Shown piece by piece: positions 6,308 to 52,919 of a stretch of 64,000 bases of DNA. The stretch comes from an uncultured Nitrososphaeraceae archaeon (lineage in GTDB: Archaea > Thermoproteota > Nitrososphaeria > Nitrososphaerales > Nitrososphaeraceae), in NCBI GenBank assembly GCA_963729045.1, contig CAVSMN010000007.1:96001-160000 (forward strand), given 5' to 3'. A model generated the notes under the pieces. The model was not told the DNA's origin. It did not search any database and saw only the letters and a program-made list of their open reading frames with translations. A program made the translations under genes and the position numbers. The stretch's first letter is position 1. Every line of letters starts with the position of its first letter.

Positions 6308-6406
6308 TCTATGAACAATAATTATTTGTCGTTTAGTAAAGCATTGCAAACTTTAATATTTATACCCAAAGTTGCTTATCCACTAAGGGACATTTGGTGA
6401 TAATGG

Positions 6407-6844
6407 ATGGCTACTCGATTAAGAAAAAGTAGAAAACAGCGCGGAAGTCGCTTCTGCGGATGGGGCCAAATTGGTCAACATAGAGCTTCGGGAAGTAGAG
6501 GAGGTGTAGGAGGCGCTGGAAAGCACAAGCACTTCTTCATCAGAACACTTAAAGAGGAACCGAATCATTTTGGGCATGAACAATTTCATGCATTAAGACC
6601 AAGCGATTCTTTAAGATGGATAAATCTTAAAGACTTGAATGAGTTGGTAAAATATTCAGAAACTAGTGAAGATGGTAAGGTCATACTTGATTTAGAAAAG
6701 TTAGGGTATGATAAGGTATTGGGTAATGGAGCCATAAACTCTGCCCTTACAGTTCGGGTAAAAAGGATCTCAGACTCTGCCAAGAACAAAATCACAGCAG
6801 CTGGAGGAGAGGTGCTAATTTTAGATGAGCTCAGTACAGAATGA
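6407..6844 (+). CDS. rpl15: 50S ribosomal protein uL15
   Basis: RGSR..GWG..GQHR.SG.RGG.G.AG..KH, KVLG.G, KI.AAGG. Confidence 0.95.
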   Translation: MATRLRKSRKQRGSRFCGWGQIGQHRASGSRGGVGGAGKHKHFFIRTLKEEPNHFGHEQFHALRPSDSLRWINLKDLNELVKYSETSEDGKVILDLEKLGYDKVLGNGAINSALTVRVKRISDSAKNKITAAGGEVLILDELSTE

Positions 6845-8276
6845 TGGTATATTTAGAACAATCGTAAAGACAATCTCCCCTGTTATCCCACAAGTTGAGA
6901 AACCTAAAAAGAAAATTACTCTAACTAATAAATTGATATGGACTGGCATTGCTATGCTTATATACTTAGTAATGGGCCAGGTTCCATTATTTGGAATAAT
7001 TATCGATCCCGCAAATGATCCATTGGCTTTTGCCAGAGTAATCTTTGCTGCCCAACAGGGAACTTTGTTGGAGCTTGGAATTGGTCCTATTGTTACTGCT
7101 GGATTGTTAATGCAGTTATTGAAAGGTTCGGATATATTAAAACTAAACTTTAAGGATCCTAATGATAGATCCCTTTTTACATCTGCTACAAAAATAGTGA
7201 CAATAATTGTAATCGTTGCAGAAACACTACTGTATGGTGTAAGTGTATATGGAGGTGCTACTCCGTCGGGCCTCCACTTGGCCGTATTAATAGCGCAGTT
7301 GATGGCGGCGTCCATCATAGTCATGTACCTTGATGAATTGGTTCAGAAAGGATGGGGGCTTGGCTCAGGAATCAGTATATTCATTATGGCCGGGGTCGCG
7401 CAAGCGATAATGTGGAGTCTCTTTAATCCCATACCAATACCTGGTGGCACTGAACCTAGTGGCTTGATACCCTTCATGATCACAAGCGGAATGGAGGGTA
7501 ATATAGGAGACGCTATACTCCGTGCGTCACCACCTGCACCTGTACCAAATATGCCCAGCCTCTTTGGATTTGGGATGACCGCGGGGATATTGCTGCTATT
7601 GGTCTACGTTCAGGGTATACACGTGGACATACCTATAGTATCGACCCGGTATCGGGGCTTTACTGCGACATATCCCATCAAATTACTTTATACGTCCAAC
7701 ATCCCCGTGATTTTGGCGTCTGCGCTTTTGGCGAACGCGCTTTTCATAGGGCAAATGCTCTGGGTAAATTACAATCCTAACAACGATAATCCTGCCTTCA
7801 ACTATATAGCGCAGTACGACGCGCAATCGCAGAAACCTACTGGAGGTCTGTTTTATTACATTACTGCGCCTAGATCCTTTGAGGCTGTCGTAGCGGATCC
7901 CGTTAGAGCGGTTGTATACGTACTGTTCTTGACGACGATTGTTACCATCTTTGGCCGGCTTTGGGTGGAGCTAGGTGGACTCTCTGCGAAGGCGGCGGCG
8001 AAGAACCTATTGGATGCGGATGTCCAAGTACCTGGTTTTAGACGGTCGGAAAGTTCAGTGGAATCCCTGCTGAACCGGTATATCCCGTCTGTGACTATAA
8101 TAGGAGGAGTAATAATCGGGTTATTGGCTTCTGTATCAGATTTATTCAATGTTTTCGGAACTGGAATAGGTTTGTTACTGATGGTGGATATACTTGTGAA
8201 CTACTATAACTTGTTGGTTAGAGAACAAGTCGACGTTCATATGCCAAAATTGGCTTCCTTATTAGGACGCACATAG
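6825..8276 (+). CDS. secY: Preprotein translocase subunit SecY
   Basis: ELGIGPIVTAG, KGWGLGSGISIFI, YPIKLLYTSNIP, VPGFR, GTGIGLLL. Confidence 0.97.
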   Translation: MSSVQNDGIFRTIVKTISPVIPQVEKPKKKITLTNKLIWTGIAMLIYLVMGQVPLFGIIIDPANDPLAFARVIFAAQQGTLLELGIGPIVTAGLLMQLLKGSDILKLNFKDPNDRSLFTSATKIVTIIVIVAETLLYGVSVYGGATPSGLHLAVLIAQLMAASIIVMYLDELVQKGWGLGSGISIFIMAGVAQAIMWSLFNPIPIPGGTEPSGLIPFMITSGMEGNIGDAILRASPPAPVPNMPSLFGFGMTAGILLLLVYVQGIHVDIPIVSTRYRGFTATYPIKLLYTSNIPVILASALLANALFIGQMLWVNYNPNNDNPAFNYIAQYDAQSQKPTGGLFYYITAPRSFEAVVADPVRAVVYVLFLTTIVTIFGRLWVELGGLSAKAAAKNLLDADVQVPGFRRSESSVESLLNRYIPSVTIIGGVIIGLLASVSDLFNVFGTGIGLLLMVDILVNYYNLLVREQVDVHMPKLASLLGRT

Positions 8277-8423
8277 AAGAATTTGGTCACATGATAATGA
8301 TTTCAAAATCAAAATCATTATCATACCATATATTCTCAAATTTTAATACTTTGCAAATTAATGAAACTATTATTATCAATTATAAAGCTAAAAATAAAGG
8401 ATTTATTTTCTAAATAGAATTAT

Positions 8424-8999
8424 ATGACTAAGCGCGTTATGATAGTTGGGATTCCAGGTGTAGGAAAATCTACTGTTATAACAAATGTATTTAATTTGCT
8501 CTCTCAAGAGGGTATCGATACTAAAATCGCCGAATTTGGTAAGATCATGTTCGAACAAGCAAAACTCCTATCGATCAACAATCGCGACCAACTCAGGAAG
8601 TTATCTATAGAGCAGCAGAGGTCTTTACAGGAAATGACTGCAAACTATATTAATTCGTTAGGTAATGACGTTGTAATTATCGACACCCACTTATTTATCA
8701 GAACTGAGCACGGGTATTATCCAGGTATGCCGTTAAAATTATTAAATATAATAAATCCTTCGCACTTGATTCTGATCACAGCAAAATCCGAAGAGATTCA
8801 TAAAAGAAGGACTGACGATAATAGCAGACAAAGAGATCTGATTTCTATTGACCGTATTAGCGATGATTTAAGGTTATCTGAGAGTATGATATCTTCAAGC
8901 TCCATAATATCTGGTTGCCCTTTCTATATTATACAAAATAATACAAATGAGATTGAAAAGGCTACAGATGATATTTGTGAGGTCATATTAAGCAAATGA
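8424..8999 (+). CDS. adk: Archaeal adenylate kinase
   Basis: GIPGVGKST P-loop, RDQLRKL, IDTH, GYYPG. Confidence 0.92.
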   Translation: MTKRVMIVGIPGVGKSTVITNVFNLLSQEGIDTKIAEFGKIMFEQAKLLSINNRDQLRKLSIEQQRSLQEMTANYINSLGNDVVIIDTHLFIRTEHGYYPGMPLKLLNIINPSHLILITAKSEEIHKRRTDDNSRQRDLISIDRISDDLRLSESMISSSSIISGCPFYIIQNNTNEIEKATDDICEVILSK

Positions 9000-52037: not shown

Positions 52038-52919
52038 ATGGTCTCTCAATCTTATGAGAATAAATTCGGTATAAAATTATCGGATGATCAACGAATCAGC
52101 AATCTTGATAGTAATGGATTGATCAAAACTGAGGAGTTAGTGCAAAAAATTCCGTTATATAACGAAAAGCTTGACGTTACCAAAAAAAGTGAGAATGGCA
52201 ACTTGAAAATTGAAAAGAAATGGATCACAGTGAAGAAGGAAATCGAGATTCCTTTAAAATATGAAGAGATTTTCATAAACGACAAAGTTTTTGATTCTTA
52301 TAGTGACAAGGAGAAAGGTGAAATTTTCTTCCAAATAAAAAGCAAGATATCTGATGCATTTCTACGAGAAAGAACTGATGAGAAGGACAACAAACAGCCT
52401 GATCCAACTGGTAGCGAGGTAGAAATTGTTTGCTGGGAACCCGAAGGAATGGAATTGAACAAGAATGTAATAAGTGAAAAAGCTATTTCGCTTTCATATG
52501 TTACATTGAGCGACCAAACAAACATCCAACAGGCCGACCAAACAAACATCCAACAGGCCGACCAAACAAACATCCAACAGGCCGACCAAACAAACATCCA
52601 ACAGGCCGACCAAACAAACATCCAACAGGCCGACCAAACAAACATCCAACAGGCCGACCAAACAAACATCCAACAGGCCGACCAAACAAACATCCAACAG
52701 GCCGACCAAACAAACATCCAACAGGCCGACCAAACAAAGACTCAAGAGACTTTTGAACTATGGGGTGAAGAAATTATTATAGATAAGAAAATGGTTAAAC
52801 TAGCCGAGATTGTTATCAAAAAGTATCAAGTGAACGAAAAACGGAAAATCGATGTAGAGGTTAATCGAGAAAAACTTACCTTAAAATTTCCTGGCAATTT
52901 CAAAGAAGAGATATCCTAA
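52038..52919 (+). CDS. DUF2382 (YsnF/AvaK-like) protein with an 8-aa tandem repeat
   Basis: IPL..EKL.V.K and EEI.I.K....EIV..K; (DQTNIQQA)x9. Confidence 0.75.
   Translation: MVSQSYENKFGIKLSDDQRISNLDSNGLIKTEELVQKIPLYNEKLDVTKKSENGNLKIEKKWITVKKEIEIPLKYEEIFINDKVFDSYSDKEKGEIFFQIKSKISDAFLRERTDEKDNKQPDPTGSEVEIVCWEPEGMELNKNVISEKAISLSYVTLSDQTNIQQADQTNIQQADQTNIQQADQTNIQQADQTNIQQADQTNIQQADQTNIQQADQTNIQQADQTNIQQADQTKTQETFELWGEEIIIDKKMVKLAEIVIKKYQVNEKRKIDVEVNREKLTLKFPGNFKEEIS
52511..52738. repeat. Perfect 24-bp tandem repeat, 9.5 copies
   Basis: Unit CGACCAAACAAACATCCAACAGGC. Confidence 0.97.

Follow-up and report, generated by a model that had tools for sequence, protein, structure and literature searches.

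Why do 278 consecutive codons within a single essential gene use a sharply different set of synonymous codons, while the encoded protein remains ordinary? Regional codon bias within genes is usually short, weak or of foreign origin. The case described here comes from an uncultured Nitrososphaeraceae archaeon (assembly GCA_963729045.1), in a stretch of 64,000 nucleotides (positions 96,001 to 160,000 of contig CAVSMN010000007.1) that we refer to as the window and that provides the coordinates used below. The gene is secY, encoding the SecY/Sec61 alpha translocon subunit, a 483-codon open reading frame (ORF) at 6825..8276 on the forward strand that was identified by a Pfam match and by alignment with Sec61 alpha. 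The block occupies codons 146-423 (7260..8093, forward strand), as delineated by codon counts and a change-point fit, and is rich in the alanine codon GCG, in CpG and in G or C at third codon positions (GC3). It is a real feature, unique in its genome, present throughout a clade, vertically inherited and roughly stationary. As for what maintains it, we give about an even chance to the explanation that its codon choice is kept in place by selection, probably acting via translation or mRNA.

Codon composition of the secY block

The anomaly was noticed in a sequence-only reading of the window, which counted GCG in 22 of the 28 alanine codons between approximately 7262 and 8095 and in none of the 12 elsewhere in secY. 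We reproduced these counts exactly. Taken in frame (7260-8093, leaving 205 codons as the remainder of secY), the block contains GCG 22 times, GCC three times, GCT twice and GCA once; in the remainder, GCT is used eight times, GCA and GCC twice each, and GCG never. GC3 is 0.536 in the block versus 0.293 in the remainder, and CpG dinucleotides number 53 (63.5 per kb) versus 10 (16.2 per kb). The arginine codons are CGG (5), CGT (1) and AGA (3) in the block, and AGA (4) and CGC (1) in the remainder. The edges had been described as abrupt; fitting two change points to GC3 locates the block at codons 147-423 (7263-8093).

The shift is uneven. Codons ending in G or C are more frequent in all four-fold degenerate families of the block, to different extents, and these families shift far more than the two-fold ones. 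The two-fold families had been described as close to 50:50; phenylalanine, tyrosine, aspartate, histidine and lysine do shift, whereas asparagine, glutamate and glutamine, as well as isoleucine, change little or not at all, and isoleucine codon use within the block is native, that is, ATA-rich. At the protein level, the combined content of glycine, alanine, arginine and proline (GARP) and the GC content of first and second codon positions (GC12) are slightly raised in the block across the genus (GC12 of 0.473-0.477 versus 0.455 in other low-GC genera), a rise that is absent from the 5' flank within secY. The translation is that of an intact, normal SecY, as the sequence-only reading had stated, with matches to the Pfam SecY domain (E 6e-63) and the Plug domain (Sec61 plug) and an alignment with Sec61 alpha that spans residues 10-471. 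From the topology of Sec61 alpha, we take the block to extend from transmembrane segment (TM) 4 to the cytosolic loop ahead of TM9.

Position of the block within the genome

The source genome consists of 2.85 Mb in 22 contigs, with 34% GC; the window lies on contig 7. We scanned codon usage in 1921 ORFs that start with ATG and are 120 amino acids or longer; these cover 55% of the genome and yield 14072 windows of 100 codons. Across the genome, GCG accounts for 9.0% of alanine codons (2430/26891) and CGG for 4.3% of arginine codons; GC3 in 100-codon windows averages 0.295, with a standard deviation (SD) of 0.062. Both codons are thus rare genome-wide and enriched in the block, where GCG reaches 79% and CGG makes up five of the nine arginine codons. 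The highest GCG count of any 100-codon window is found in the secY block (12 of 14 alanine codons), the next native ORFs reaching 5-6. By GCG fraction, secY ranks first among the 935 ORFs with at least 12 alanine codons; by best-window GC3, it ranks 13th of 1921, and the ORFs above it look foreign or spurious. A frame-independent scan identified 48 islands that reach a GC of 0.45 or more; by CpG content, the secY island belongs to the top five, with 42 CpG per 600 bp against a mean of 11.9 in this CpG-poor genome. The other CpG-richest islands are long GC-rich ones, probably rRNA operons, and whole foreign-looking genes. No comparable island confined to part of a gene was seen elsewhere in the genome in either the GC3-window scan or the GC-island scan.

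Distribution among relatives

The genus comprises 34 species genomes, in 32 of which secY was retrieved with our query; the two genomes without a match, G255 and G257, are 84% and 80% complete, respectively. The sequence-only reading had set down the same GCG-rich codons in close relatives as an outcome contrary to its claim, and such codons are present in all 18 species of clade A (SecY at least 89% identical), including three single-contig assemblies. In this clade, GC3 is 0.37-0.54 in the block versus 0.21-0.34 in the 5' part of secY, and GCG occupies 9-22 of 25-32 alanine codons versus 0-4 of 9-11. In several species of subgroup A1, GCG makes up 63-79% of the alanine codons of the block at a GC3 of about 0.5; in the A1 block overall, the fractions are 0.61 for GCG and 0.10 for GCC among alanine codons, and 0.42 for CGG among arginine codons. 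The other 14 congeners (clades B, C and their kin, at approximately 79-84% identity) show a weak offset of +0.04 to +0.17 and few GCG codons. In one of the congeners (L141; G261:C80:27900-30200), the secY matches fall into four pieces that differ in frame (residues 1-288, 328-402, 401-452 and 286-482), which may reflect frameshifts, a broken gene or assembly errors, the genome being 71% complete.

Outside the genus, the comparison included 86 rows from the order, representing 81 distinct secY genes (five loci were fetched twice). The difference in GC3 between the block and the 5' part has a mean of +0.02, an SD of 0.05 and a maximum of +0.13 among these genes, and the share of GCG among the alanine codons of the block does not exceed 44% in any of the 81, even at a GC3 of 0.87. 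In each of the 26 rows of the genus that were analyzed, CGN encodes 4-7 of the 7-9 conserved arginine positions of the block; outside the genus, AGR is mostly used at these positions.

Could the block be an artifact, that is, an assembly chimera, as considered in the sequence-only reading, or contamination of the bin by a secY fragment of another organism? Only the abrupt compositional edges favor such an explanation. The genome carries a single secY, and a search for a second copy in it found none. An independent contig from a sediment metagenome (X5, 7.3 kb) spans 6400-8700 at more than 99% identity, showing 17 differences and a single 1-nt gap. Both edges are crossed by contigs from two RNA libraries, 7262 by X15 record 3 (7107-7357) and 8095 by X16 record 12 (7996-8260); such contigs are uninformative as to strand, ends and level of expression, and DNA may be present in RNA libraries. 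Another public run (X6) did not cover the block at the likeness chosen. The species itself is listed for 20 public data sets from 11 studies, soil and rhizosphere metagenomes among them. The X5 contig, the edge-bridging contigs and the agreement of 18 independent species assemblies, including the single-contig genomes G012, G015 and G080, refute the chimera, and an artifact of any kind is hardly credible.

Native origin of the block

The composition of the block had also prompted the suggestion of a patch acquired from a higher-GC relative. Separate protein trees for block and flanks (quick LG+G4 reconstructions, with the partial or distant rows L026, L029, L030 and L031 left out) each place the genus on a stem of 0.22 at 100% support, and clade A is nested within the genus in both. 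The ratios of block to flank distances are uniform, at 1.1-1.4 (the A-B and B-C distances are 0.222 and 0.224, respectively); the high-GC genera are the most distant ones in the block, and no outgroup genus is relatively closer there. We found no donor among the 19 other genera of the family or in other families, and no higher-GC congener, all 32 congeners with secY being low-GC outside the block. The 15 pattern matches in the viral collection yielded no confirmed viral copy, and the plasmid collection searched contained no match. Recombination breakpoints at the compositional edges, another expectation of a patch, are not seen either: in a sliding scan, divergence does not change stepwise at either 7262 or 8095. 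Because the block and flank trees agree, the block is, to judge from these comparisons, native secY sequence that was vertically inherited.

Recombination does appear to affect the gene. In the sister species L005, divergence from the window drops to 0.00-0.03 over approximately 6750-7425, against 0.05-0.11 on either side, which suggests recent homologous recombination over the 5' part of secY. This tract overlaps the start of the block and ends near 7425, not at the block edge.

A more ancient event has to be weighed as well, namely, intragenic replacement in the ancestor of the clade or of the genus, from an unsampled, GC-rich, GCG-preferring close relative, with the block still decaying toward AT. 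Such a replacement would account for the abrupt 5' edge common to the species, for the slow-changing arginine codons that are CGN in the block genus-wide and AGR in most other genera, and for the resemblance of clades B and C to faded versions of the block; the preponderance among strain variants of changes from G or C (strong, S) to A or T (weak, W), a net S>W excess in one lineage pair and a possible downward drift of the block after correction for parsimony bias, all detailed below, also agree with it. However, the genus stem has the same length in both trees, despite a rate of evolution that is normally about 1.1-1.4 times higher in the block, and a GCG-rich source is missing, given that all of the congeners are low-GC outside the block, that no sampled secY of the order exceeds 44% GCG and that no viral or plasmid copy was found. 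The native, ATA-rich use of isoleucine codons in the block does not fit a foreign source either. Furthermore, L002 and L008 both retain 78-79% GCG despite a 33% four-fold difference within the block, so that pure decay would need an ancestor near 100% GCG. The absent donor and the congruent trees speak against the old transfer, which we consider unlikely.

Synonymous turnover and direction of substitution

Synonymous divergence (dS) in the block is about twice that in the 5' part of secY in every close pair and is similar to that in neighboring genes, with the kinase-like gene downstream (8424..8999) serving as a baseline. It follows that the 5' part is the slow one and that the turnover of synonymous sites in the block is close to the local background. 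Between subclades A1 and A2, synonymous sites are near saturation, with a four-fold mismatch of 0.59-0.71 and a proportion of synonymous differences of 0.69-0.76 even in the 5' part, and the bias of the block is retained in both subclades despite this divergence.

We polarized substitutions in five sister pairs using outgroups and compared the block with five neighboring gene segments. Within the block, the two directions are balanced (72 W>S and 64 S>W), implying an equilibrium GC3 (GC3*) of 0.52 versus the current 0.49. The S>W rates are equal in the block and in the neighboring segments (0.129 and 0.127), whereas the number of W>S changes per W site is 0.140 in the block versus 0.090 outside (1.55x, Fisher P = 0.001). 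Among strain-level third-position variants of the block, polarized by sister species, seven clear S>W changes were found versus one W>S change. Mutation, then, pushes toward AT, whereas the fixed differences do not, and we read this as AT-biased mutation being resisted in the block, or its effect at least greatly slowed there.

A raised W>S rate with an equal S>W rate is also compatible with a regional, non-adaptive bias of fixation or repair, for example, GC-biased gene conversion at a recombination-prone secY tract, which would hold GC3 at about 0.5. Several other observations agree with such a bias: both G-ending and C-ending codons are up in most of the four-fold families, GARP and GC12 are slightly raised genus-wide in the block and not in the 5' flank, dS in the block is high within the range seen locally, and the tract of low divergence between L002 and L005 shows that recombination occurs in secY. 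On the other side of the balance, this single tract does not end at a block edge, and there is neither a repeat or motif to start conversion nor a second copy to act as a donor. To our knowledge, GC-biased conversion is not established in archaea.

Codon and site specificity

The positions of the GCG codons provide further evidence. In five mutually diverged lineages, GCG is over-dispersed over alanine sites (P about 0.001): four columns are GCG in all five lineages, against 0.68 expected, and three alanine columns are GCG in none, against 0.28 expected. The four invariant columns, all on the forward strand, are codon 157 (7293..7295), with GCG in all 14 clade A species whose residue at this position is alanine, as well as in most members of clades B and C; codons 161-162, a GCG GCG pair (7305..7310), with GCG in 14 of 15 and 15 of 15 clade A species, respectively; and codon 298 (7716..7718), with GCG in 15 of 15. 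A uniform conversion or repair bias does not predict that the same alanine sites are GCG in diverged lineages, nor that GCG is six times as frequent as GCC, nor that asparagine, glutamate, glutamine and isoleucine codons are nearly unchanged and the two-fold shift far weaker. Selection on codon choice fits this codon- and site-specific pattern better than a codon-blind repair bias, and we infer that selection, rather than repair bias, keeps the codon bias; the conversion scenario nevertheless retains some weight as a rather unlikely alternative.

Under the selection scenario, the codon choice of the block would have shifted in place to G/C-ending codons, above all, GCG for alanine and CGG or other CGN codons for arginine, with the ancestry of the protein unchanged, and at least 18 species of one clade would have retained the shift despite the AT-biased mutation pressure of the genome. 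Selection on codon choice appears to be the most likely agent because the pattern is amino-acid-specific and partly site-specific. It could operate through the decoding of rare codons by their cognate tRNAs, which would affect the rate or accuracy of elongation as TM4-TM8 of SecY are made and inserted; alternatively, a bulk property of a GC-richer mRNA segment might be what is selected.

A number of observations weigh against selection as the cause or weaken the case for it. The counts obtained by parsimony carry a bias: for the segments outside the block, GC3* comes out at 0.42 when the actual GC3 is 0.31, and if the block estimate is inflated to the same degree, its GC3 would be declining toward about 0.41, a value that still exceeds that of the flanks. 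Two of the five sister pairs share L002, and the pair L004/L006 shows 19 S>W versus four W>S changes, which looks like decay in that lineage. The sample of strain variants is small. A singleton test did not separate the block from the rest, and like the whole-clade Fitch parsimony, it is biased or underpowered for distinguishing decay from maintenance. Within the block, G/C-ending codons are weakly associated with hydrophobic segments (rho 0.16, P = 0.01). A general effect of membrane proteins was considered and rejected as too weak, with GCG at 12% in these proteins versus 9%, and the other ORFs with a high GCG fraction do not have GCG as their preferred codon; hence, there is no general rule that would predict secY. 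Finally, the genome encodes tRNA-Ala(CGC), tRNA-Ala(GGC) and tRNA-Ala(UGC), and tRNA-Ala(CGC) was found in all five genomes checked, which represent all four clades of the genus, so that tRNA gene content does not explain what sets clade A apart.

A stronger version of selection through decoding can be formulated, in which the GCG- and CGG-rich domain would be a codon-level control device acting via nearly idle tRNA-Ala(CGC) and tRNA-Arg(CCG). If so, translocon synthesis, or the pace of SecY insertion into the membrane, would depend on the state of those tRNAs, and the block would amount to a single-gene, tRNA-gated regulator of protein-export capacity in archaea resembling soil ammonia oxidizers. 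We regard such a device as improbable. As a separate observation, a complete congener genome contains a 56-nt partial copy of tRNA-Ala(CGC) (L121; G015:C1:1320128-1320183), 93% identical to the intact gene and about 5 kb from it, which is not called as a tRNA by ARAGORN.

Search for an embedded second signal

The third suggestion of the sequence-only reading was synonymous recoding that carries a second signal. Part of this suggestion stands, in that the bias appears to be actively maintained; the signal itself did not emerge, as no motif, alternative ORF, RNA structure, Rfam family or repeat was found in the block. Control of translation rate, one of the signals proposed in that reading, may still play a part. 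The presence of stop codons in all five alternative frames was confirmed, and no position of the block lies within at least 60 open codons in any of the five alternative frames across all 15 species compared, leading to the rejection of an overlapping ORF. A specific RNA structure was likewise rejected: in six species, the folding z-scores range from -1.21 to +0.52 against shuffles that preserve the protein and the codon usage, that is, there is no excess folding. The best Rfam hit to the block has an E value of 0.98, no repeats were detected in it, and no DNA motif was found around the CpG or GCG sites, GCG being followed by any base. Codon reassignment was rejected, too: decoding is ordinary, since the GCG columns align with alanine, glycine or serine elsewhere.

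An antisense ORF of 167 amino acids (6821-7324, reverse strand) overlaps the AT-rich 5' part of secY, outside the block proper. The antisense frame is open for at least 60 codons over 7055-7231 in 15 of 15 clade A species and is the sole alternative frame kept in this way, which may just reflect codon structure.

The codons could also be a by-product of a role at the DNA level, with the block serving as a chromatin or histone landmark or suppressing spurious AT-rich promoter or terminator signals within an essential operon. Such a role needs no sequence-specific element, and it would suit a segment that is among the CpG-richest 600-bp stretches of the genome and is preceded by an AT-rich trough. 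However, the equally hydrophobic and T-rich 5' part of secY stays AT-rich, T-runs are not avoided in the block, a GC requirement does not predict GCG over GCC, and no comparable partial-gene island is seen elsewhere in the genome; we therefore consider this role very unlikely.

Genomic neighborhood and other compositional islands

The locus has the usual gene order, with uS5, uL30, uL15, secY and nucleotide kinases in a row. The uL15 gene (6407..6844, forward strand), the upstream neighbor in the same operon-like row, has an ordinary GC3 of 0.32, and its end overlaps the start of secY by 20 nt. Downstream, the nucleotide-kinase-like gene (AAA_17 family; 8424..8999, forward strand) is similarly ordinary, with a GC3 of 0.36. 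The AT-rich trough at third codon positions, directly 5' of the block (codons ~100-145; 7122..7259, forward strand), has a GC3 of 0.13-0.20 in the source genome. Its 3' edge, at codons ~143-148, recurs throughout the genus, and in clades B and C, the change-point fits choose the trough itself (codons ~100-148, GC3 0.02-0.17). No island of synonymous constraint was found at the trough or at the block boundary; within secY, only the first 15 codons are constrained, with a very low synonymous entropy of 0.23. Compared with uL30, the block and the kinase genes farther downstream, dS is reduced in the 5' third of secY (6825-7259) and in uL15, both of which prefer GCT-, GGT- and ACT-type codons, as if under ordinary codon-usage selection.

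Other regions of unusual composition were encountered in the genome. An ORF of 293 amino acids at 52038-52916 (forward strand) of the window, C7:148038-148916 in contig coordinates, reaches a 100-codon GC3 of 0.53, which ranks it 16th of 1921, with GCG in none of nine alanine codons. Outside the window, a 5.8-kb island (C10:159401-165200; GC up to 0.61, GC3 0.68-0.84) holds an ORF of 1147 amino acids and two smaller ones, and looks foreign for a genome with 34% GC. Three further sites (C12:212601-218300, C12:366301-371900 and C20:175501-181200), also outside the window, are similar paired GC-rich islands, with GC up to 0.56-0.58, each with an identical 123-aa ORF; they probably represent three rRNA operons, the ORF being spurious.

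Comparison with known systems

The secY block offers a clean natural case in which to ask whether synonymous sites of archaea can be held by decoding selection or by a local repair bias, and it bears on the tuning of SecY biogenesis. In practical terms, composition-based detectors of gene transfer or chimerism will wrongly flag the block in this genus. The parts of the literature that were available to us contain no description of such a block.

With mosaic genes undergoing amelioration of foreign DNA, the block shares abrupt compositional edges within a conserved gene and an intact protein. It differs from them in showing neither phylogenetic incongruence nor donor-like codon usage in the order, and in persisting past near-saturation.

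GC3 islands attributed to GC-biased gene conversion at recombination hotspots have been described in eukaryotes (PMC5576983; 10.1101/2021.05.05.442789). Such islands resemble the block in the regional rise of GC3, the elevated W>S rate and a slight drift of amino acids toward those with GC-rich codons. Unlike those islands, the block is archaeal, is contained within a single gene, is codon- and site-specific, with GCG far in excess of GCC, and has no hotspot element.

In codon-biased, tRNA-dependent translational regulons, transcripts are tuned by one isoacceptor or its modification. The case of secY involves one gene, and no regulon was found; the likeness would be in a transcript loaded with a codon presumably best read by the little-used tRNA-Ala(CGC), with arginine CGG in a similar position.

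Clusters of rare codons and slowly translated segments are known from membrane and multidomain proteins, and non-optimal codons have been tied to co-translational targeting or folding. Judged by its codon usage, the secY block may be likened to such segments: codons that the genome seldom uses are concentrated locally in it, the protein is a polytopic membrane protein, and orthologs keep the enrichment as a regional property rather than as a fixed sequence. What sets the block apart is its length, 278 codons versus tens, its domination by GCG, and its confinement to one gene in one clade.

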